From the IMG/VR virus record IMGVR_UViG_3300042502_001233, positions 19,125-83,124 of that record: a stretch of DNA of 64,000 nucleotides. The stretch is one strand, 5' to 3'. The DNA is from a virus. A program made the position numbers and the translations under genes. The notes beneath the pieces were generated by a model, which did no database searches, was not told where the DNA came from, and saw only the letters and a list, made by a program, of their open reading frames with translations. Positions 2,530 through 64,000 of the stretch are shown one piece after another (position 1 is the stretch's first letter; the number at the start of each line of letters is the position of its first letter).

Positions 2530-3933
2530 TTAATCTACCAATAAGGTTTTAATCATGTTTTCAATTTCTTTTATAGACTCCAAGGAATCACACGTGTCTT
2601 TGTCGTCTCTAAACCCAGCAAAAGAAGGGTATAACAATGAGTAATTACCATCAACATCGTTTGATAACCCGTTACATTTACATTGGATTACAGTACCCAA
2701 CAAATTCTCTTGGTTTTCTGTGATATAAGCCATCATATCTTCTTTAAGACCTTGTGGTCTTGTTTTAACCAACCCATCAGAAGACTCGCAGTTAAAGCTA
2801 GAGATTACATTCTCATTCTTTGTTCCTTTGGTTCCGTAGTTGAACCCTACAATACGTAAATCAACATCCATTTCCAATTTCATTTTGATTTGCCACGTTG
2901 GTTTTCCGTCTTTCCACTCACCATTCCATGCTTTAAGGATTGTACCTTCTTCACCAGCAGCCAATACTTCTTGGAAGTGGGTCATAGCTTGTGCATAATT
3001 GTGAACAATAAGACTTTCAACGATGTTTACATGTGTTGGACCAACTCTTTCGATAGCTCTTTCCAAATATGCTAAACGTTCAGCGTATTTAAGTTTTGAT
3101 GATTTGTTGAAGTATTCATCTACTGTAAGACGGTCCCATACGGTATAACGAATTTTGTCTAGAGCTTCTTCCATCGAACCATGTTTGTCAGTGAATGCTT
3201 TTAATTTTTTCTCATTTTCTTTGTCACTTCTAGAATCTTTTTTACCCAAGATGTCGATAAGTGACGCGATGATACCGTTAGACTCGTATCTAGGGGTATC
3301 AACCATAGTTAACTCTCCGTTAAGAACACAATCTTCAAATGAAGTTAATTCATCTAAGAATTTAGCGCCAGTTAAGATTGTTGGTTCACCTTGACGTGAT
3401 TCCATTTCAACTTCACCACTACGAATAACAGCGTTGCAGTAACGACCATCCATTTTTATTTGTGATATTCCTTTACCACCTTTTTCGAAAATTTTACGAG
3501 CTTTCTTCTCGTCGAAAGATACAGCACCCATATAAGGTGTGTCTTCAATAAGGTCTTTGAATACTTTATTCATAAAAGTAGTTCCCATACCAATCTTACA
3601 GTCTTTCTCAATGATACGTTCAATGATGTAAGCATCTTCTGGTTGTAAATTAGACAAAACATTTACTAATAAAGTTAACGCTTCATTACCCGAAACTTCT
3701 CTATTTGATATACTTTCTAATATATTTAAACCCCAATTCAAATCTCTTGATGGTTCAAATATTTGTCTTGTGTATTCAGGAATTCTTTTAATATAGAATT
3801 TAACTCGTTTAGAGTTTGCCATGTATAGCACTTTCTTTAGTAACTCGTTATCCGAGTACTTTCTAAGGATATCAACCTTAGCGTTGTTACCGCTCTCAGC
3901 AGCAATCTCATCAAAAATTTGTTTGATTGTCAT
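2530..3933 (-). CDS. ATP-dependent DNA ligase
   Basis: Motif I KMDGRYC (KxDGxR), 467 aa, T4/T7 ligase-like layout. Confidence 0.9.
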   Translation of the reverse strand: MTIKQIFDEIAAESGNNAKVDILRKYSDNELLKKVLYMANSKRVKFYIKRIPEYTRQIFEPSRDLNWGLNILESISNREVSGNEALTLLVNVLSNLQPEDAYIIERIIEKDCKIGMGTTFMNKVFKDLIEDTPYMGAVSFDEKKARKIFEKGGKGISQIKMDGRYCNAVIRSGEVEMESRQGEPTILTGAKFLDELTSFEDCVLNGELTMVDTPRYESNGIIASLIDILGKKDSRSDKENEKKLKAFTDKHGSMEEALDKIRYTVWDRLTVDEYFNKSSKLKYAERLAYLERAIERVGPTHVNIVESLIVHNYAQAMTHFQEVLAAGEEGTILKAWNGEWKDGKPTWQIKMKLEMDVDLRIVGFNYGTKGTKNENVISSFNCESSDGLVKTRPQGLKEDMMAYITENQENLLGTVIQCKCNGLSNDVDGNYSLLYPSFAGFRDDKDTCDSLESIKEIENMIKTLLVD

Positions 3934-3934
3934 A

Positions 3935-4252
3935 TTAATTATTTAATATTATTGAGTCACCTACTTTTTTGTTAAGGTATAACTCATGAGTTATTGTATA
4001 AACGTCTTCACCTTTTTTGGTTTTAATAACCATTTTGTCGTTGGGTAATTTTTTGGTCACTAGACCTTTAGTAGGTGGTGTTGGTTCTGCGATAGCGATA
4101 GCTATAAAGTATATACCAACACCTATCGCTATTAACGCAATTGTAATCATTAAACACCCAATACCAGATTTTTTGTTGTTAGAACTACCAGCAGCTTCAA
4201 TACCAATTTCAGCTACCCCTGCTATTAACTCACCAATTATTTCGCCAGCCAT
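3935..4252 (-). CDS. membrane protein
   Basis: 105 aa with central TM helix IALIAIGVGIYFIAIAIA. Confidence 0.4.
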   Translation of the reverse strand: MAGEIIGELIAGVAEIGIEAAGSSNNKKSGIGCLMITIALIAIGVGIYFIAIAIAEPTPPTKGLVTKKLPNDKMVIKTKKGEDVYTITHELYLNKKVGDSIILNN

Positions 4253-4270
4253 AATGTTTTTGTTTTAGAG

Positions 4271-4312
4271 TACAAATATACTACTTATTTTTAATCCTCC
4301 AAACTTTTTCCC
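4271..4312 (-). promoter_or_regulatory. Bacteroidetes-type promoter (class 1)
   Basis: tacaaatatactac ... cctccaaactttt, a near-duplicate of the rnl2 promoter, about 20 nt upstream of the ATG at 4252. Confidence 0.5.
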
Positions 4313-4536
4313 AATAATTTTTCCAAATGTTCCCACATTGGTTTGGCAGCGATTGGTGTGTTAAGGTACAAAGCACCTTTGAACTCCGCGTATTCCTTGG
4401 CATACATGTCAATTTTACCACCGTGTTCGATGTTCGCAATTCTATCACCCAACTTAAGAATAATTGCATCTGGGTTGCTATGCACTTTGATAGCTACCAA
4501 CTTTGCTTCTTCGTAAGTTTTATCTGTGTAAGTCAT
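4291..4536 (-). CDS. hypothetical protein
   Basis: 81-aa ORF. Confidence 0.4.
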   Translation of the reverse strand: MTYTDKTYEEAKLVAIKVHSNPDAIILKLGDRIANIEHGGKIDMYAKEYAEFKGALYLNTPIAAKPMWEHLEKLLGKSLED

Positions 4537-4913
4537 TATTCTTTCTCCTTTTCTTTTACGTGGTCATCACATAGTGTGTATAACCAACCTTTTATTTTTC
4601 TGTTTGTACCTTTTTCACCACATTTCTCACACGTTTCGTAAGATAGTTTTTCGTATTTTATGATAACATCAGCAGCACCTTCTGGATACGTTTCGATATA
4701 GAATCTTAACCCACCAAATTTTTCTTTAACTTGAACAGGTCTTTTATCCCACCCCAATGCGATTAATTCAGTTATTAGGTCTTTGATAATAGGATACCAA
4801 CCTTCACCAACACCAAAAGCATATGCATCAACGATTGGTCCTTTATCTTCTCGATATGTTCTTTCTAACCCACCTATGGAAACTAGAAATTCATCCATTT
4901 CTTTTTTGGTCAT
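4536..4913 (-). CDS. zinc-ribbon protein
   Basis: CEKCGEKG...LCDDH Cys cluster. Confidence 0.4.
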   Translation of the reverse strand: MTKKEMDEFLVSIGGLERTYREDKGPIVDAYAFGVGEGWYPIIKDLITELIALGWDKRPVQVKEKFGGLRFYIETYPEGAADVIIKYEKLSYETCEKCGEKGTNRKIKGWLYTLCDDHVKEKEKE

Positions 4914-5730: not shown

Positions 5731-6681
5731 TTAGAGCATTTTGTATAACAATTTGTCATCGTAGTTAACTATGAAGTCTTCTACTGAATCAACTTTACCA
5801 TCAACCAACCCAAAATACAATCCAGTGAATTGTTTTAAGTCGTGTTTTCCACAAACTTCAAAGACAGCCGCAGCGTATCTTTTCTTTTCTTCTTTGGTTA
5901 TGTTTCTTGGTTTACGAGCGCTTAACTCACCCCACATTTCATTTAACTTTACAGTCAATTTGTCGTAGTTCTCTTTAAGTCTTAACAATTCGTCTTTTCT
6001 TTCTGGGAAAGTTGAGGCGAATTCTTCTATCTCGTTAGATTTAACGATAGTTATGATATTGTGTTCAGCAGTTTTACCTTTAAGGTGATGTGCGTGTACG
6101 TAAGCTGGGTTTTTTATCTTGATACGATTGAAATTAGCGTCTACAACAACGTAACCTTCTTCTGACCATGGCATACCCTCAAATGTACGTAACAACGCAC
6201 CCACATCTTTAGCGTTCAAGTCAAATCTTTTAACCAATGGTAATCTTAAAGATACGGATACCATTTCTAAGTCTTTCCAAGACAATTCCACTAAAGTCAC
6301 TCGGTTTCTAACAGTCAACAAAGTTGCTGATGATTCTCCGTGTGGTGCTACAACGATATTGTATGGAGTAGTTAACTCAAAAACGTATACGTGGTCTTTA
6401 TCCAACATACATGGGTTTAACGCGTATTGTTTTGTTACAGTATCCCAAAATAACGAGTTGAATGTTGTTCCCATTTTGTTGTTTACTTCACCTTCACCTT
6501 CGGCTGTACCAGTTGTACCAGCAAACCATTTATTAGCGTGCCAATCCCAATATACTTGGATTAATGAATTATGTACTAGAATACCATTAGCGAAAAAATT
6601 ATTAGTTATTTTGGTTTGAATGTCGTATCTTTTAGATTCACAAGTAATTGATTTGATACTTTTTATTTTAACTATTTTCAT
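5731..6681 (-). CDS. RNA ligase 1 (Rnl1 family) C-terminal part preceded by a split-intein C-segment (IntC, 38 aa)
   Basis: The N-terminus ...YDIQTKITNNFFANGILVHN|S is intein block F/G ending HN then Ser+1. The extein SLIQVYWD aligns with T4 Rnl1 SLVSTYLD after KEDG. Motif IV EGYVVVD and motif V RIKIKNP are present. Confidence 0.8.
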   Translation of the reverse strand: MKIVKIKSIKSITCESKRYDIQTKITNNFFANGILVHNSLIQVYWDWHANKWFAGTTGTAEGEGEVNNKMGTTFNSLFWDTVTKQYALNPCMLDKDHVYVFELTTPYNIVVAPHGESSATLLTVRNRVTLVELSWKDLEMVSVSLRLPLVKRFDLNAKDVGALLRTFEGMPWSEEGYVVVDANFNRIKIKNPAYVHAHHLKGKTAEHNIITIVKSNEIEEFASTFPERKDELLRLKENYDKLTVKLNEMWGELSARKPRNITKEEKKRYAAAVFEVCGKHDLKQFTGLYFGLVDGKVDSVEDFIVNYDDKLLYKML

Positions 6682-7595
6682 TTTAATAAATTTATTTGTT
6701 CAACAATAAATAACTCCAACTCAATATCATTAAGCGATGATATATCCATTTCCCATAATGTGATAACTTTGTATTGATTTTTATATGCAATATCTATTTT
6801 TTTTTCATCTTTCTTCCATATAGTTTCAGCTAAGACATGTTTTTTTGGGAATGGTAATATATCACCAATCTTATATTTTCTTGGGTTAGCGTGCCAAAAA
6901 TCACCATTTACTTCAATAAGAATATTAGTATTGTTAATATAGTAATCAAATACTTTACCTTTTAACGTAAATTGTGGTTCAAATTTAAGTCCGATATCAA
7001 TCAAAATCTTACCAACTCTTTTTTCCAAAATAGAAGAACCGCCACTACATAGTCTTTTTATTTGATTTAGTTTTTGTTCTTCGGTATATGAATACCAACC
7101 ACTAATTCTTTTTACACCATATTTTTTTAACATTAATTCATTAACATTATCTTTAAATTCATCAAGTTTAAAGATATTATCAACACCATAATTTTTGATA
7201 AAAGTTTTTTGTTTTTTTTCTTTTATTGATTCGTTGTTTGAGACATTATCAACACCAAAACGTTTAAAACAAGTTGTTTTATATTTATTTCTAACTGATT
7301 TTTGATTACTTATTTCTTTTGATGATTTCAACTTAATATTATTTAATTTTAATAGTGAAGTTAAACTTTTATTAGGTATTTTATATTCTTTAACCAAACT
7401 AAAAACAGAACCGTCATTAATATATTTTTTAATAATTTCACCTATTAACACATCAGTTAAACCAAACCTTGTTTTTAAAACAAACAATTCTAGTTCAGTT
7501 TCATTTTTAAATTCACTATTGTGACTATTTTTAACGTGTAATTTAAACATTTTACTATCAAATTCACACTCACATTTTATACATTTAATCTTCAT
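6678..7595 (-). CDS. freestanding homing endonuclease, Vsr-like/EDxHD-type catalytic domain with N-terminal Zn finger and NUMOD-like repeats
   Basis: C-terminal NILIEVNGDFWHANP...K resembles the Vsr FVDGCFWHGH core. It lies between the two halves of the Rnl1 gene. Confidence 0.75.
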   Translation of the reverse strand: MKIKCIKCECEFDSKMFKLHVKNSHNSEFKNETELELFVLKTRFGLTDVLIGEIIKKYINDGSVFSLVKEYKIPNKSLTSLLKLNNIKLKSSKEISNQKSVRNKYKTTCFKRFGVDNVSNNESIKEKKQKTFIKNYGVDNIFKLDEFKDNVNELMLKKYGVKRISGWYSYTEEQKLNQIKRLCSGGSSILEKRVGKILIDIGLKFEPQFTLKGKVFDYYINNTNILIEVNGDFWHANPRKYKIGDILPFPKKHVLAETIWKKDEKKIDIAYKNQYKVITLWEMDISSLNDIELELFIVEQINLLK

Positions 7596-7605
7596 AACTT
7601 TTTTT

Positions 7606-7619
7606 TATTATAAATATCT
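7606..7619 (-). promoter_or_regulatory. class-2 motif (minus strand GATATTTATAATAA) immediately upstream of the endonuclease ATG
   Basis: Plus-strand ttattataaatatc; the same motif is found before most endonuclease genes. Confidence 0.35.
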
Positions 7620-7652
7620 AGAAATATTAGAAAAGTTAGATTAGTATCAAAT

Positions 7653-8255
7653 TTATTTAGTAATTAATAAAAATTCATCTTCTTCTGTTAATTCGCTGAC
7701 CATTCTATAACAATTTAGTTTAGGTAACCAAACTTTATGATTTCCAGTTAATTTAACGGTAGTCCCATCTTCTAATTCAATTTCAAACCAATCGTTAATA
7801 TTCTTCTTAACTGAATAATCAATAATCTCGTCATACATTGGTTCATTACTTTCTAAATCTAATGATAAAACTTTACCAGAATACTTAGTTTCACATATCT
7901 CACGAATCGTCATTTCACCATCTTCAGTTATAAGAACAGTGTCCTCATGACAGCAACCATCAAGTTTCTCTAACACATTGGCTGTGTTCCAATCTATTTT
8001 AGCAGCGTTTCCTTCTTCAGCGTTGAAGAATTTACGGAACGCCAACGACATAACTTTCCACGTACCTTTTTCAAGAATAAGACCACGACAATCTTGCATC
8101 TCTGGCAACCCCATAAGAGTTGGTGACGATAATTGGTCATATTTCAAAAGAATCTTGTTATCGTATTCTCTTGATTTAAGTTTAAAGTCATTTATAGCTT
8201 TATCTAGTCCATATTTTTTTATATATGTAACGATAGCTAATTCATTATTTTTCAT
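7653..8255 (-). CDS. RNA ligase 1 N-terminal part (motif I KLDG) fused to a split-intein N-segment (IntN, about 99 aa)
   Basis: LPEMQDCRGLILE...FRKFFNAEEGN...LEKLDG aligns to T4 Rnl1 LPDALECRGIMFE...MEKFFNLNENP...LTKEDG. It is followed directly by CCHEDTVLITEDGEMTIREI, which is intein block A. Confidence 0.8.
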   Translation of the reverse strand: MKNNELAIVTYIKKYGLDKAINDFKLKSREYDNKILLKYDQLSSPTLMGLPEMQDCRGLILEKGTWKVMSLAFRKFFNAEEGNAAKIDWNTANVLEKLDGCCHEDTVLITEDGEMTIREICETKYSGKVLSLDLESNEPMYDEIIDYSVKKNINDWFEIELEDGTTVKLTGNHKVWLPKLNCYRMVSELTEEDEFLLITK

Positions 8256-19114: not shown

Positions 19115-19166
19115 TATGTGCAAAGATACAAAAAGTTAAAATACTGTGCAAGTTTTTTTTAAAAAA
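19115..19166 (-). promoter_or_regulatory. class-1 promoter (TTGCAC-N17-TTGTATCTTTG on minus strand)
   Basis: Plus-strand tgtgcaaagatacaaaaagttaaaatactgtgcaagtttttttt. Confidence 0.4.
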
Positions 19167-20483: not shown

Positions 20484-21677
20484 TCAAGATAATCCTAATA
20501 ATTTTTTAAATTTATCAGTTTCCATTTTTTGAATGGCTTTTCCAAGTTCAGGTCCAGGACCTATATTGAATTTTTCCATCGCTTCTGGACCAGTAACTGT
20601 TAGTCTGAACTCTTCAAAAGCATCTAGCAATTGTGATGATATACCTTCGTTGCTACCAAAATTTCTAATTTGGTCGTTGGATACTCCAGAAGTTTGTTGT
20701 ACTTTCTTTAATAAGTAAGCAGTGTCAACATCTAACTTCAATAATGAAATTAAAAACACAATGGCTTTAATCTCATCCGATGAGTATTTTAAATCATTTA
20801 GTTTTTTTCTCAATACATCAACGTTGTTACCTTTTAACAACCTAGCTAACAATACTATGTAATCATCAGCTTTGTAATCAGAGTTTCTTCTAAATACTCT
20901 TGTGTCTACATCCAAATTAGGAAATATCCAATCAAACAATTTGTATTTGTCTAACATCAACAAGTAAGCGTCGGTTGATTTAGCTGATATAAGCCCTTTG
21001 ATAAATTCATCTCTAATACGTTCACCAGAAATACCTTCAAGACTAGCATCTTGTTGTAACGCAGCATCTACGTCAGGGTCCAACCCACTACCAAATCTAC
21101 CAGCCAGTCTTATACCTCTAAGTTTACGTAATTTATCTTCACTAAACCTGTCTTCTGATTTACCAACAGTGCGTATAACAGAATTTTTTAAATCAACGAT
21201 ACCACCTACTAAATCTACTACTTCTTGGGTGTCCATATCATAAAACAAAGCATTTACACTAAAATCTCTTCTTAAAACATCAGATTTTATATCTGAAAAT
21301 TCAACGTAATCTGGTCGTCTACCATCACTACTACCGATATCTTTACGCATAGTAGCTATCTCATATTCACCATCTGTAGTTATAACATTAACCACACCAA
21401 ACGCTTTACCTGTTTCCAATATATTTGTAACAAATTCTTGATTTTTTAATAAATTTATTACGTTATCTGGTGTGGCATTTGTTACTAAATCAAAATCTTT
21501 TGGTGTTACATTAAGTAACATATCACGAACTGACCCACCAATAGGGTATAATTCAAAACCATTTTTTTTAAAAATTGAATGAATTTTATTAACATTTGTC
21601 GGAAATTTAAAATAAATTTTTAATCTCTTCTCTGATGTTAAATTTTTTTTTAAAATTTCCTTTATAATTGTTTTCAT
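20484..21677 (-). CDS. tRNA nucleotidyltransferase (CCA-adding enzyme)
   Basis: Head-domain motif LYPIGGSVRDMLL...DFDL (GGxVRD / DxD). Confidence 0.8.
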   Translation of the reverse strand: MKTIIKEILKKNLTSEKRLKIYFKFPTNVNKIHSIFKKNGFELYPIGGSVRDMLLNVTPKDFDLVTNATPDNVINLLKNQEFVTNILETGKAFGVVNVITTDGEYEIATMRKDIGSSDGRRPDYVEFSDIKSDVLRRDFSVNALFYDMDTQEVVDLVGGIVDLKNSVIRTVGKSEDRFSEDKLRKLRGIRLAGRFGSGLDPDVDAALQQDASLEGISGERIRDEFIKGLISAKSTDAYLLMLDKYKLFDWIFPNLDVDTRVFRRNSDYKADDYIVLLARLLKGNNVDVLRKKLNDLKYSSDEIKAIVFLISLLKLDVDTAYLLKKVQQTSGVSNDQIRNFGSNEGISSQLLDAFEEFRLTVTGPEAMEKFNIGPGPELGKAIQKMETDKFKKLLGLS

Positions 21678-58952: not shown

Positions 58953-59786
58953 TTATTGGTTTATTAATTCTTGCAATGTTTGTGTATGGTGTCTTAACTT
59001 TCTGATTGCTTTTTCTTTGATTTGTCTGATTCTTTCTTTTGTCAAATCATATTTATCACCAATGGCTTCAAGTGTCATTGCTTCGTGTGTTATGTTCATT
59101 CCGAAATATGATTCAACAATCATTTTCTCTCTTTCATCCAACACACTTAATATTTTATTTAATTCGTCTTTAACTTTATCGTTAACCTCAATCTCATCAA
59201 TGTTTAAAGTTAACGGTTCACTTACTAACAAATCAACAATTTCACCACCTTCTTCACCAATCAATTTGTTCAATGAAGAAGTTTTTGAATAATTTAATAT
59301 TGATAAATCATTTTCTTCATTAAACATATCAACATAAATAGGGTCTGTTTCGTTTTCTTGTTCTGTATTTGACATTTCTTTATTCAATTTTGAAATTTTG
59401 TTAATAACGTTAGCTGGTAATCTTACTACTCTAGCGTTATCGTTAAGACTTTGAATAATTGATTGTTTTACCCACCATACAGCGTAAGAGATAAATCTAA
59501 ACCCTCTTTTATGGTCAAATCTGTGAGCAGCTTTGATTAGGCCGTAATTACCTTCATTTATCAAATCTGATAATGGAAGACCTTGCCCTTGATATTCTTT
59601 TGCGATTGAAATCACAAATTTAAGGTTGGCTTCCACCAACTCGGTAGTCGCTTTTGTATCACCTTTTTTTATTCTTTTTGCTAATTCTATCTCTTGACTA
59701 GGAGTCAAGATAATAGATTTTTTTACTTCTTTAAAATACTTTGAAACTGTGTCATCTGTACTATAATTTACATACTTTTTGTTCAT
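58953..59786 (-). CDS. sigma-70 family RNA polymerase sigma factor (group 3-like)
   Basis: Region 2 FDHKRGFRFISYAVWWVKQSI; region 4 HTH LEAIGDKYDLTKERIRQIKEKAIRKLR. Confidence 0.85.
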   Translation of the reverse strand: MNKKYVNYSTDDTVSKYFKEVKKSIILTPSQEIELAKRIKKGDTKATTELVEANLKFVISIAKEYQGQGLPLSDLINEGNYGLIKAAHRFDHKRGFRFISYAVWWVKQSIIQSLNDNARVVRLPANVINKISKLNKEMSNTEQENETDPIYVDMFNEENDLSILNYSKTSSLNKLIGEEGGEIVDLLVSEPLTLNIDEIEVNDKVKDELNKILSVLDEREKMIVESYFGMNITHEAMTLEAIGDKYDLTKERIRQIKEKAIRKLRHHTQTLQELINQ

Positions 59787-60451: not shown

Positions 60452-62758
60452 TTAATTAAACGTTATTTTAGAAATATTATTTTCTTTAACTACAGTAACC
60501 ACGTTTGTTGACCAATCTTTAACGATATCGTTGTGTGTGATAAAGAAGACGATATCATACATGTCTTTTACTTTATCAAACAACAATTTTAGTTTTTCAA
60601 GATTCTCTGGAGCCACTTTACCCAACACTTCATCAAACGTGATGAAATTAGGCATAGGTAGTGTAGATAGTTTCCCTAACACAGCTCTTAAAGCTAGACT
60701 GGCAGCAGTTTTTTCTAACCCAGACCCAGATTTTAACAATTTAGAAACACCATCTTTAACTAATAAAAACTGAACATCGTTCTTATCATTAATAAATATC
60801 TCGATTTCAAAATCTACAACATCTTCTAATAATCTTTGAACTTCTGAATTGATAATTGGGAGAACTGAGCGCAATACCAATTTACTAATACCTTTCTTAC
60901 CAACCAATTCAATGTATATCTTGAATATTTTATCAACTTCCTCTTCTTTTTTTATAGTTTCAATAAGTTTTGTTTTTATACCAATATGTTCCGCGTTGAT
61001 TCTTAATTCACTTTGAACTCGTTCGAGACTTCTGATTGTTTCGTCTTTTTTATATTCTTTAACTGAAATATCTGTAATAATTTTACTAACAGCTATTTCT
61101 ACACTACGATTTAACTCTATCGCTTCTAAGTTTAATTTGTATTTTTTCAAATCATTCTTTTTAGCAACAATTTGGTTTCTTAATCCACCCATTTCAACTT
61201 CTAATCTGTCTATATCCAATTCCTTTTTACCAATTGAGTCAGCAATTTTTTTGGTTTCATTTAAACCTTCAAGTTCTTCAACACTTTTTAAAAGTTTATC
61301 AGTAAGTTCTTTTACTTCTTTGTTTATTTTTTCAATCTCAACCTCATGTTTAGCTATATGTGCTGAATTATCAACATCATCTAATTTTCTGTTACATGAT
61401 TGACAAATACCACCAGCAATTAAATCGGATACAACTTTTTTAAGTCTTTTTGATTCGGCTTCTTTAACTGCTTTATCCATATTTAATTTACTACCTAATT
61501 TTGTCAACTCATGATGTCTATCTTCATCAAATTCAATTTTACCTATCTCTTCGATTTCACTTTTTATAGTTGTTACTTTACCACTTAACTCAACACCTTT
61601 ATCAATGAGTGTTTTAATGTCATCTTCAAGTCTTTGGGGGTTTAATTCTGAAATTGTTACGTCAATTTTCTCTTTGCTGTTTAAAAGAGCATCTTTTTCA
61701 GTTTTTAACTCTTCCAAAGATTGTTTAGTAGTTTCTAAAGTTTCGTTTAAATCACTTTCTAGTTCATTATAGTTCACAATTTTTTCATTGTGGTCATCAA
61801 TCTCTTGACCCAAAGTTATAACGTCGTATTCGTTAGATTTCTTCTTTTTAGAAAATTCATTGTACATCGTTCTAGCGATTGCTTCTTTCATTTCAAGAAC
61901 TTCTAAACCAATAAGTCTAGTAAGTATCTTACCAGATTCAGTTGTTGTCAATCCAATCAATTCATCCAAGTTTTTTTCAGTAGCCAAAACCAACATTTCA
62001 AAATCTTTTTCGGTTCCGATGCTTTCTTTTAACTTTTTAGTTGTTTGTTTGGCATCTTCTTCATTTAATTCCTCTTCTTCACCATCTGGTTGAATTTTAT
62101 AGTAGTTTACTTTGTTTACAACAGTCCAACCACCACCTTTTTTAGAAGTACGTCTCATTTTTCTTTCAATGATAGTCTCTTCACCTTCAATTTCAATCAT
62201 TCCACGAACAACCAACTCATTCTTTTCAGAGTATGTGTTGAATATTTGCTCGTTGGTATCTGTTTTGGTTGTACTACCATGAAGCAAAAACTTAATAGCG
62301 TCGATTGTAAGCGTTGTATTATGTGATACGATTCCATTGGTATAATATTGATGGACTTCGGCTACTTGAATATCGTATAATGTATCTTTTTCTTTTAATA
62401 ATTCAATAGTAGCAACAGCACTATCACCATCGTTTGTTTGAATCATCTCACCAACTTTTATCTCTTTAAGGACAACAAACTCATCATCCGTTTTCTTTAA
62501 ACGATGATAATCAGCACCTTCAACAAACATTCCGTTTTGAAGTTCACATCTATAAACATCAGCATTTTCTTCTGTAATTCCACACCACTCAATGTCTTTA
62601 TAACCATATGGTGTATCAACTTTAAATCCTAGGTCTCCGTATTTTTGGTAAATATTATTTAATTCACCAATTGTAATTTCTTTATTCTCCATCTTTTTTA
62701 TATAAATTAATTTCTTCAATTTCAAATTCAATACCACGAAGTTTATCTTTAGATTCAA
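60452..62758 (-). CDS. SbcC/Rad50-like recombination ATPase (T4 gp46-like) preceded in-frame by an intein C-segment (blocks B, F, G; about 125-147 aa)
   Basis: N-terminal VYRCELQNGMFVEGADYHRL (block B-like) ... DTLYDIQVAEVHQYYTNGIVSHN|TTLTIDAIKFLLHG, where the extein starts at the [ST]T of the P-loop. The C-terminus has the signature motif, Walker B FITFDEV and H-loop FFITHN. Confidence 0.7.
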   Translation of the reverse strand: MNLKINFVVLNLKLKKLIYIKKMENKEITIGELNNIYQKYGDLGFKVDTPYGYKDIEWCGITEENADVYRCELQNGMFVEGADYHRLKKTDDEFVVLKEIKVGEMIQTNDGDSAVATIELLKEKDTLYDIQVAEVHQYYTNGIVSHNTTLTIDAIKFLLHGSTTKTDTNEQIFNTYSEKNELVVRGMIEIEGEETIIERKMRRTSKKGGGWTVVNKVNYYKIQPDGEEEELNEEDAKQTTKKLKESIGTEKDFEMLVLATEKNLDELIGLTTTESGKILTRLIGLEVLEMKEAIARTMYNEFSKKKKSNEYDVITLGQEIDDHNEKIVNYNELESDLNETLETTKQSLEELKTEKDALLNSKEKIDVTISELNPQRLEDDIKTLIDKGVELSGKVTTIKSEIEEIGKIEFDEDRHHELTKLGSKLNMDKAVKEAESKRLKKVVSDLIAGGICQSCNRKLDDVDNSAHIAKHEVEIEKINKEVKELTDKLLKSVEELEGLNETKKIADSIGKKELDIDRLEVEMGGLRNQIVAKKNDLKKYKLNLEAIELNRSVEIAVSKIITDISVKEYKKDETIRSLERVQSELRINAEHIGIKTKLIETIKKEEEVDKIFKIYIELVGKKGISKLVLRSVLPIINSEVQRLLEDVVDFEIEIFINDKNDVQFLLVKDGVSKLLKSGSGLEKTAASLALRAVLGKLSTLPMPNFITFDEVLGKVAPENLEKLKLLFDKVKDMYDIVFFITHNDIVKDWSTNVVTVVKENNISKITFN

Positions 62759-62883
62759 TACGGTTATTAATTAAATCAAACACAGTTTCAATTTGTAAAA
62801 AAGGGCTATCGCCACTAATTATTACTAGGTATTGTATTCTTCTATATGATTTTTGTGTATATTTATAAACACCTTTTTTAATT

Positions 62884-63900
62884 TTATTTATTTCCATTTT
62901 TTAAAAATTTTTTACATTTATTTATTATCTCTTGTTTGTTTTTTTTATATTCGGAATCCCAAACAACTAAAACTTCAAAACCTTTATTATTAGCTATTAA
63001 CATTTTTTGTTTATCTTTATCCCAAATATCTTTAGCTGTTAAGTCTTTTCTAAAAGGGTTTGGATAATCATCTTTATCATATTTATTTGGATTACCATGA
63101 TAATCATCACCATTATACTCAATTATTTTTTTATTTTTTAAGTCAGTAAAATCATATCTATAAAAACCATTATCATCAGTTAAAACAAATTCACCACCTT
63201 TTTTTGCAAAAAGAAAATAATTAATATCATTAATGTCAACTTTTTCTATTAACGTATAAAACAACTCTTGACTTACTTCGGAATAACCAGATTTTAATTT
63301 ACCATTTTTATAAAGTGTTTTTTGCCATTTTATTTGTCTTTCATTAAACTTAACTAACCCTTCTTCTGAACCATATTTTTTAATACAGGTTTTTAAACTA
63401 AACGTTTGTTGTCTTTTAGAAACCATTTGTTTACTTTCTTTATCATCAAAACCTTTATTTAACCAATATTGGATATTAGCACTTCCAAGTTTACCAGCGG
63501 CACTTCTTTTACCTTCTCGTTCTCCCCATTTTTTAGTACCTTCTTTTTCACCAAACCTAGCTATACAACCTCTTAAAGAAACCATTTTTTGACCTTCAAT
63601 TTGTAGTATCGCTTCTTCTTCGGTATAACCATTTTTAACCCAATATTCAATATTTACTGGTCTTAAAGTTCTAATGTGGTCTTCAATTTTGTTTTCATTT
63701 AAACCTCTATCTATCCAATATTGTTTTGAATAAGGTGAACCTTTTGGTATTACAATCCCTAAATTTTTTAACCTACTAGTTATAACACTAGGGTCAACAT
63801 TAAATCTTAGTGCTATCTTATTAGTAGATTCAAAATTCTCATTATACAATTTTAACATTATTTTGATTTCATCATCACTAAATTCTTTTCTTTTTCCCAT
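62884..63900 (-). CDS. freestanding homing endonuclease, Vsr-like/EDxHD-type, N-terminal HTH
   Basis: C-terminal IIEYNGDDYHGNP...K...D; sits immediately upstream of the intein-bearing SbcC-like gene. Confidence 0.7.
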   Translation of the reverse strand: MGKRKEFSDDEIKIMLKLYNENFESTNKIALRFNVDPSVITSRLKNLGIVIPKGSPYSKQYWIDRGLNENKIEDHIRTLRPVNIEYWVKNGYTEEEAILQIEGQKMVSLRGCIARFGEKEGTKKWGEREGKRSAAGKLGSANIQYWLNKGFDDKESKQMVSKRQQTFSLKTCIKKYGSEEGLVKFNERQIKWQKTLYKNGKLKSGYSEVSQELFYTLIEKVDINDINYFLFAKKGGEFVLTDDNGFYRYDFTDLKNKKIIEYNGDDYHGNPNKYDKDDYPNPFRKDLTAKDIWDKDKQKMLIANNKGFEVLVVWDSEYKKNKQEIINKCKKFLKNGNK

Positions 63901-64000
63901 TTTAACTTTTATATCTATAATTATTATTTACTATAAATATAACCGTTTAACCAAAAAGGTAAAGACAAAGAAATAATTATTTTAGTTCATCTGGTAAAAA

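Follow-up and report, generated by a model that had tools for sequence, protein, structure and literature searches.

In a giant freshwater phage, a Rad50/SbcC-like gene (T4 gp46-type) was found fractured within its Walker A P-loop, with the two pieces carrying the halves of an atypical split intein that would rejoin them by trans-splicing, a reading to which we assign a probability of about 0.88. The gene lies on the minus strand at the end of a DNA stretch of 64,000 nucleotides (nt), hereafter the window, which covers positions 19,125 to 83,124 of the IMG/VR virus record IMGVR_UViG_3300042502_001233; the phage is considered giant because the longest contig carrying these proteins reaches 362,018 bp. 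In this work, we establish the structure of the gene, its homology and fold, the precise insertion point of the intein and the conservation of its parts, and we weigh the explanations that the arrangement allows.

The two pieces of the SbcC-like gene

The minus-strand open reading frame (ORF) 60452..62758, which opens with TTG in the ORF list, had been described in an earlier note on this DNA as an intein C-segment that continues into a Rad50/SbcC body, and this is indeed what the frame encodes (Table 1). The ATG at 62692 (MENKEITIGEL...) is the likely start of the 746-amino-acid (aa) protein formed by the C-terminal intein half (IntC) and the C-extein, because a 746-aa gene is called there in 4 public assemblies and the homologues begin with M[EN]KEI. 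IntC residues 1-125 end in ...DTLYDIQVAEVHQYYTNGIVSHN, after which TTLTIDAIKFLLHG... opens the 621-aa body, whose codons without the stop occupy 60455..62317 and whose first residues run from the Walker A Thr onward (TTLTIDAIKF...). The family PHROG_77 (SbcC-like subunit) was matched with an expectation value (E) of 2.8e-40, and this alignment opens at residue 126, that is, at the first residue of the C-extein. The C-lobe aligned to Pyrococcus furiosus Rad50 (E 0.0056), and the CxxC zinc hook (GGICQSCN), the signature (SGSGLEK), the Walker B motif (FITFDE) and the H-loop (FITHN) were all located; the Pfam family SbcC_Walker_B scored 14.8 bits, under its 27-bit cut-off.

As the earlier note had stated for the 300 nt upstream, Walker A is not encoded there, nor farther on in the window: no GK[ST], GGK or GxxGxGK was found in the six frames of 62693..64000. 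This region holds the 71-aa ORF and the Vsr-like endonuclease gene that had been noticed there, as well as the end of a further minus-strand ORF that leaves the window, whose TAA stop was placed at 63977..63979 and whose last 7 codons (FLPDELK) were placed at 63980..64000. The earlier prediction had placed the missing front half on the upstream side of the endonuclease gene and in part past the window end, and it was recovered there. Contigs obtained by an exact-sequence look-up of the 338-aa endonuclease extend past window position 64000, and three of them (L004, L005 and L006) match the window tail at 99.97-100% identity across 2.6-3.7 kb. In all three, the ORF ending in FLPDELK is 192-193 aa long; the 193-aa form consists of a 164-aa N-extein, ending in ...PANQGGK, and a 29-aa N-terminal intein half (IntN), CVRADTKVNIQFNKNEIIKKLGFLPDELK, followed by the stop. 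With a slash marking the extein-intein junction, the sequence reads ...HKSWAIKWIMIDNFLSFGEQNYVPFSRLNGLTIVNSIPANQGGK/CVRADTKVNIQFNKNEIIKKLGFLPDELK, or in its shorter form ...WAIKWIMIDNFLSFGEQNYVPFSRLNGLTIVNSIPANQGGK/CVRADTKVNIQFNKNEIIKKLGFLPDELK, again up to the stop. The N-extein corresponds to the Rad50/SbcC N-terminus as far as the Walker A Lys, and the IntN then has block A (C..DT.V), in agreement with the pattern that had been predicted for the sequence past 64000 (..NF.S...G...I...NG.GK and then C..DT.V).

Walker A is complete only once the two halves are joined. When Lys164 was joined in silico to the Thr that follows ...VSHN, the product read PANQGGKTT, a normal P-loop, within a protein of 785 aa. 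In the public JGI records, the N piece is annotated as a 'hypothetical protein', and 'DNA repair exonuclease SbcCD ATPase subunit' is the name given to the C piece.

The Rad50 N-terminus is preceded by a conserved domain of ~120 aa (N-extein residues 1-122; L004 6368..6730), which is present in all homologues, including those lacking the intein. This domain is not known from T4 gp46-type proteins. The AlphaFold2 model of the N-extein plus IntN protein had a mean predicted local distance difference test score (pLDDT) of 66.5, with parts of the ~120-aa domain at 80-90, and no significant fold match in the PDB was obtained for this domain of the model.

Identity of the intein and its splicing residues

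When IntN and IntC were compared together with PDB sequences, the best match was VidaL (6vgv, E 7.6e-8), followed by Cat (6dsl, an engineered atypical intein; 1.6e-4) and then by the DnaE and gp41-1 inteins; VidaL showed ~30% identity to the intein both in the sequence and in the Foldseek comparison. The AlphaFold model of IntC, built with 14 homologues, reached a pLDDT of 90.6; in it, residues 8-18 form a helix, which strands follow. Among the PDB matches listed by Foldseek for this model, all were inteins or related intein-like (BIL) domains, with VidaL first (TM score 0.84, root-mean-square deviation 1.9 Å) and the Npu DnaE structure also matching.

The residues relevant to splicing are kept. 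At the block A junction, GGK/CVRADTKV, Cys1 does not vary among 29 aligned IntN-bearing homologues and is found in 107 clusters. Blocks B, F and G, which the earlier note had recognized in the first part of the ORF, were located in IntC: block B is GADYH, with His63 invariant; block F is DTLYDIQV, with D107 invariant; and block G is GIVSHN/T, with S123, H124 and N125 conserved at 90% or more. The +1 residue is Thr in the window protein, and T, S or C in its relatives.

The IntN is composed of block A, a short helix predicted with modest confidence (NEIIKKL) and the tail LGFLPDELK. By alignment, the counterpart of VidaL's first helix sits in IntC, and the break therefore falls before it, as it does in VidaL (S1 region). 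Altogether, the sequence data support a class 1 intein (HINT splicing domain) with an atypical N-proximal break, for which splicing activity is predicted. The sizes that had been anticipated, an IntN with only block A and an IntC of 100-125 aa, agree with the 29 and 125 aa found; the earlier observation is confirmed, and its interpretation as an atypical split intein is supported.

Insertion point and allele states

Intein-less homologues read ...NQGGK/TTLTIDAIKFLLHG, which is exactly the predicted spliced junction. A search with the 193-aa protein returned 143 relatives, and the counts given here were drawn from 120 listed clusters. The 29-aa IntN ends the protein at the same position in 107 of them, with the consensus C[VIL][RK].[DN]T......[FY]....[IV][IV].K[LI]GFLPDELK followed by the stop, while 10 clusters run straight through (...NQGGK/T[TS]LTIDAIKFLLHG...). 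In IMG/VR, approximately 40 of 46 loci are intein-less, and the region after GGK spans 620-622 aa, matching the length of the C-extein.

Four allele states occur at this one site within the clade, namely intein-less, contiguous mini-intein, split with endonuclease, and split without endonuclease. Contiguous mini-inteins of 147 aa (...KKIGVLPDEITIGEL..., in L008/L009) and 151 aa (...KKLGFLPDELNEEITIGEL..., in L011/L012) were identified, and L058 and L061 are likewise contiguous alleles. An endonuclease orthologue of 336-342 aa fills the gap between the split halves in the window and in eight more loci (L053, L054, L055, L057, L060, L063, L066 and L069), and in three loci (L056, which equals L007, L064 and L068) the halves lie 40-110 nt apart with no endonuclease gene. 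L058, L061 and these three loci are candidate targets for cleavage by a homing endonuclease. The IntN stop and IntC start boundaries are identical across 11 distinct loci and, for the IntN, across the 107 clusters.

Relative to the contiguous forms, the split falls at PDE(LK-stop/M.NK)EITIGEL. The contiguous forms at the same site show that the IntN tail is in its entirety part of the intein and that the break costs no sequence. We had also considered that this tail could have arisen by duplication of the helix in IntC, or could have come in with the endonuclease cassette, and both options were ruled out, as the contiguous alleles hold both segments in series. A third protein search, using the contiguous intein of L008 as query, returned no contiguous proteins.

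Regarding cultured phages, a megablast search against GenBank phages with the final 6 kb of the window gave no match, and for the 746-aa protein tblastn against phages gave distant matches only (the TerL inteins of Delftia phage PhiW-14 and of Vibrio phages, and ATPase C-lobes). No cultured relative carries the split SbcC locus.

Selection and breadth of the intein family

Ratios of nonsynonymous to synonymous substitution rates (dN/dS), taken as medians across divergent loci with dS ~1, were 0.23 for the IntN, 0.135 for IntC and ~0.15 for the intein as a whole, and 0.13-0.32 for the flanking extein. In the IntN tail, the codons vary synonymously (Ile ATA/ATC/ATT, Leu CTA/CTG/TTA/TTG, Gly GGA/GGG/GGT, Pro CCA/CCC/CCT), which indicates selection on the protein and therefore excludes decay. 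The clusters keeping the IntN stop position diverge down to 52% extein identity.

An exhaustive HMMER search with IntC retrieved 570 representative proteins at E ≤ 1e-3, and classes were counted on the best 146 of these 570 (50%-identity representatives). IntC stood at the N-terminus, that is, the intein was naturally split, in 92 of the 146, including 57 of the 75 Rad50/SbcC-like proteins, 22 of the 33 TerL-like proteins and 13 of the 38 that were other or unassigned. In the contiguous TerL-like members, the intein likewise follows the Walker A GK (SRQ.GK/C).

Three related proteins have particular features. P0169 (1017 aa) and P0186 (1211 aa) are Mre11-Rad50 fusions (Metallophos; P0169 also SMC_N) bearing a contiguous intein of this type behind the P-loop Lys (...GK/CVDENTEIEIEFDEKEIIEKFGFLPNELK...). 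P0154, a 377-aa metagenomic TerL-like fragment, has a related IntC near its N-terminus, and its end (...NQEYACLSGDSIIKLLD...) looks like the block A of another intein, so that a single terminase gene may have two of them.

The endonuclease gene and its flanking elements

The 338-aa endonuclease has an N-terminal helix-turn-helix-like region and a C-terminal Vsr-like (EDxHD-type) domain, ...YDFTD...IIEYNGDDYHGNP...DKDK.... Among its orthologues and three paralogues, the C-terminal domain keeps an invariant D, E..GD..H..NP, D..K and W, the invariant alignment positions being D47, E58, G61, D62, H65, D93 and K96. In profile comparisons, this domain matched Vsr (1vsr/1cw0, E ~4e-3), the DUF559 structure 3hrl (2.6e-4) and I-Bth0305I (3r3p, 0.028); in Pfam, weak matches to DUF559 and MTES_1575 were obtained, and PHROG_22677 was matched at 1.2e-28. 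On this weak but consistent sequence support, the protein fits the Vsr-like 'EDxHD' homing family (PMC2677866, PMC3239194). One paralogue of 291 aa, located elsewhere in the window, scores above the DUF559 cut-off and matches Vsr at 4e-4; it is a free-standing gene flanked by one of 397 aa (20484..21677) and one of 408 aa, neither of them visibly broken.

In the 5' untranslated region (UTR) of the endonuclease gene, the motif CTTTACC-N13-GGTTATATTTAT is conserved in 9 endonuclease-bearing loci, and part of it is kept in the endonuclease-less L056; in its full form the motif has this single copy in the window and is not reused elsewhere there. A promoter-like TTTACC/16 nt/TATATT was recognized in the same interval, and in several loci TTTACC is able to pair with the ATGGGTAA start region. 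Just upstream of the endonuclease ATG lies an AU-rich hairpin of -14.3 kcal/mol, which is not significant alone (z = -1.64 versus shuffles).

The 71-aa ORF shares 14 nt with the stop end of the endonuclease gene and 11 nt with the start of the IntC gene. Pfam and PHROG gave no match for it and IMG/VR no relative, it does not resemble the passenger ORFs found at the other loci, and its frame is retained in 7 variants at 90% identity or more. At the 3' side of the endonuclease gene, L053 has ORFs of 76 and 59 aa, L060 and L063 have ORFs of 167-172 aa, and L054, L055, L057, L066 and L069 have none. Given that the small ORFs differ between loci, the 71-aa ORF is a variable passenger of the insert, outside the intein.

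Other fractured genes and neighbors in this phage

A second fractured gene is present in the window at 5731..8255 (minus strand), where an RNA-ligase-like gene is interrupted by a split intein and an endonuclease gene (Table 1); Pfam matches at this locus are RNA_lig_T4_1, Intein_splicing and Hint. Further, on L004 at 3049..4909, ~2-4 kb past the window end, an SbcD/Mre11-like (Metallophos) gene is found in pieces with no intein: its N part (226 aa) and its C part (85 aa, ...PSSLIQQNFGE...) lie on either side of a 309-aa paralogous endonuclease gene. Since the SbcC-like and SbcD-like genes are both broken, both subunits of the SbcCD-like nuclease are fractured in this phage. Two genes downstream of the SbcC-like gene, a sigma-70 family factor (regions 1.2, 2 and 4) is encoded, and the order of these genes is conserved in the relative L007.

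Table 1. Features of the SbcC-like locus, the RNA-ligase-like locus and neighboring genes in the window, with the evidence for each.
Feature	Position	Strand	Evidence or remarks
C-extein, Rad50/SbcC-like body, 621 codons + stop	60452..62317	minus	PHROG_77, Rad50 C-lobe, motifs
IntC, 125 codons (MENKEITIGEL...YYTNGIVSHN)	62318..62692	minus	PDB sequence matches, AlphaFold2, Foldseek
Orphan 71-aa ORF	62682..62897	minus	Between endonuclease gene and IntC gene
Free-standing homing endonuclease gene, 338 aa	62884..63900	minus	Orthologues, motifs, profile matches
Spacer + 5' UTR of endonuclease gene, 76 nt	63901..63976	minus	Conserved motif, hairpin
Promoter-like element	63963..63936		TTTACC/16 nt/TATATT
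Tail of N-extein + IntN gene, FLPDELK + TAA	63977..64000	minus	Sequence read, translation
Ligase C-extein preceded by 38-aa IntC (...NGILVHN/S)	5731..6681	minus	
Vsr-like endonuclease, 305 aa, in ligase locus	6678..7595	minus	
RNA-ligase-like N-extein (...EKLDG/) + canonical ~100-aa IntN (CCHEDTVLITEDG...)	7653..8255	minus	
Endonuclease paralogue, 291 aa	21674..22549	minus	DUF559, Vsr
Sigma-70 family factor	58953..59786	minus	Regions 1.2, 2, 4

Discussion

From homology and conservation, we infer that the two intein halves associate and trans-splice, and that the endonuclease homes. In the proposed sequence of events, a mini-intein would have entered the Walker A P-loop between the Lys and the Thr of GGK/T, and a free-standing Vsr-like homing endonuclease gene would then have broken it near its N-terminus. 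Two polypeptides would be made as a result, the N-extein (164 aa) with the IntN (29 aa), and IntC (125 aa, with all other splicing blocks) with the C-extein (621 aa); the endonuclease gene, the 71-aa ORF and the IntC gene are probably transcribed together from the promoter-like element of the cassette. The IntN would dock into the near-complete IntC and finish the HINT fold, and class 1 chemistry, relying on Cys1, the block B His, the block F Asp, the His-Asn pair and Thr+1, would join Lys164 to Thr. Splicing would thereby restore the P-loop of a 785-aa ATPase, with ...NQGGKTTLTIDAIK as the predicted junction peptide, and the endonuclease would be the mobile agent spreading the fractured allele.

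Some observations weigh against this explanation. The upstream N gene was read from near-identical contigs and not from the window itself. The fused IntN and IntC score 28.0 bits for the Pfam family Intein_splicing (PF14890), below its gathering score of 35.8 (E 2.1e-6); the relative P0200 exceeds this cut-off at 38.9 bits. The Thr of block B is replaced by Ala (ADYH), a change likewise found in VidaL (AFNH). Lastly, the endonuclease matches Vsr and I-Bth0305I weakly (E 4e-3 to 0.03).

The most serious competing explanation is that the intein halves act only as a non-covalent dimerization module, with no ligation of the exteins, or that they perform cleavage only. There is a parallel for this in the endonuclease-fractured Aeh1 NrdA, the pieces of which reportedly associate without peptide ligation. 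Moreover, the same endonuclease family fractures the adjacent SbcD-like gene with no intein involved, as also occurs in PMC2677866, and the usual block B Thr is missing here. However, the residues needed only for splicing (Cys1, the block B His, the block F Asp, the His-Asn pair and Thr or Ser at +1) are conserved in more than 100 clusters, a P-loop nicked and burdened with 154 extra residues would probably be disrupted in its ATP binding, and VidaL and the TerL inteins, to which this intein is most closely related, have been reported as active trans-splicers (PMC13014065). We regard association without ligation, or cleavage only, as improbable.

It is very improbable that the locus is a decaying pseudogene, that is, an SbcC gene killed by the endonuclease insertion and left with a dead intein remnant, an alternative that the earlier note had kept. 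Although a gene with an essential motif interrupted by 1.3 kb of foreign DNA might at first be taken for a broken one, no assembly shows either ORF disrupted, and the ATPase motifs of the C-extein are all intact; further, the IntN and its stop position are kept in 107 of the 120 listed clusters with the catalytic positions conserved, the intein evolves at dN/dS ~0.15 with dS ~1, and the relatives show neither frameshifts or stops nor dN/dS near 1. An assembly or sequencing artefact, with a frameshift or chimeric join disguising a gene that is really contiguous, is hardly credible: the public contigs L001-L003 do end in or near the endonuclease gene, which hints at assembly difficulty, but the independent JGI, ENA and Logan assemblies agree on the order N gene, endonuclease gene, 71-aa ORF and IntC gene at 99.97-100% identity, the architecture is common to 8 more divergent loci, and the 1.3-kb gap, where a hidden in-frame N-extein had been envisaged, lacks Walker A and is filled by a conserved endonuclease gene identical in all three sources. 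The breaks at the endonuclease gene in L001, L002 and L003, which are contigs of this same phage, fit a repeated or polymorphic element confusing assemblers.

The arrangement is rare but not unprecedented, because both fractured genes and atypical natural split inteins have already been published. Dassa et al. (2009; PMC2677866) described 'fractured genes', including a terminase intein with an unusual break and a 122-aa IntC, as well as an SbcD-like gene of freshwater Lake Gatun fractured without an intein; control hairpins were reported at the endonuclease genes, and according to their model the loss of the endonuclease would leave a bare split intein. The window locus is like these loci, especially the Lake Gatun terminase, in having a same-strand, free-standing homing endonuclease gene between the gene halves, a hairpin or control element upstream of it, endonuclease-less derivatives and a freshwater source. 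The 5' UTR element and hairpin may be similar in kind to the 2009 control hairpins, a weak analogy. As in that set, the phage of the window also has a ligase locus with a split intein and an intein-less SbcD-like fracture, the latter, seen on L004, matching the Lake Gatun 'SbcD-like' locus. Unlike in those loci, the host protein is Rad50/SbcC, which has 0 mentions in PMC2677866, contiguous and intein-less alleles are known for the same site, and there is an additional orphan ORF at the 3' side of the endonuclease gene.

Among individual inteins, VidaL (6vgv) is the closest solved relative in both sequence and structure, being Cys1-dependent and having Ala for Thr in block B, as the window intein does. 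Its IntN has 16 aa versus the 29 aa of the present one, which has ~13 more residues, including the helix NEIIKKL and the near-invariant tail LGFLPDELK; Thr as the +1 residue and the host protein are further differences. In a published classification (PMC13014065), S1 denotes a break after strand 2, as in VidaL, whereas in the TerL inteins the break comes behind that first helix (S2), and the IntN of atypical split inteins measures 15-37 aa. The AceL-TerL, GOS-TerL and Cat-TerL inteins are likewise built from a short IntN (25-37 aa) and a long IntC (104-115 aa), and CatC was the second-best PDB sequence match of the window intein; they differ in the S2 break, the extein and the Cys at +1, given that in the window intein the equivalent helix is in IntC. 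The cyanobacterial DnaE inteins (Npu/Ssp) are also natural trans-splicing class 1 inteins that reconstitute an essential DNA enzyme, but their break is canonical (IntN ~100 aa, IntC ~36 aa), and the genes for the two halves are distant from each other, with no endonuclease gene in between.

The published atypical natural split inteins that we found are the TerL inteins, VidaL and PolB16. No published Rad50, SbcC or gp46 intein was found in the searchable literature, several key subscription papers lying outside it, and Rad50/SbcC is therefore an apparently undescribed intein host.

We also considered whether the phage uses the fracture as a timing gate and does not merely tolerate it, which we think doubtful. 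If it did, the N piece would be expressed with the upstream genes, and IntC with the C-extein from the promoter-like element of the cassette; an active Mre11-Rad50 nuclease would then need four polypeptides together, as well as a P-loop restored by trans-splicing. The conserved helix and tail of the IntN (I.KKLGFLPDELK) would in that case serve specifically for docking.

Few natural split inteins with a peptide-sized IntN have been published, and such inteins are sought for protein engineering; this locus supplies one that has Cys1, Thr at +1 and a 29-aa IntN, together with over 100 variants from nature and with relatives that are contiguous by nature. At the Rad50/SbcC site, the set of evolutionary intermediates is unusually complete; as all four allele states are kept at one site in one clade, the gene-fracturing model proposed in 2009 becomes testable with natural substrates.

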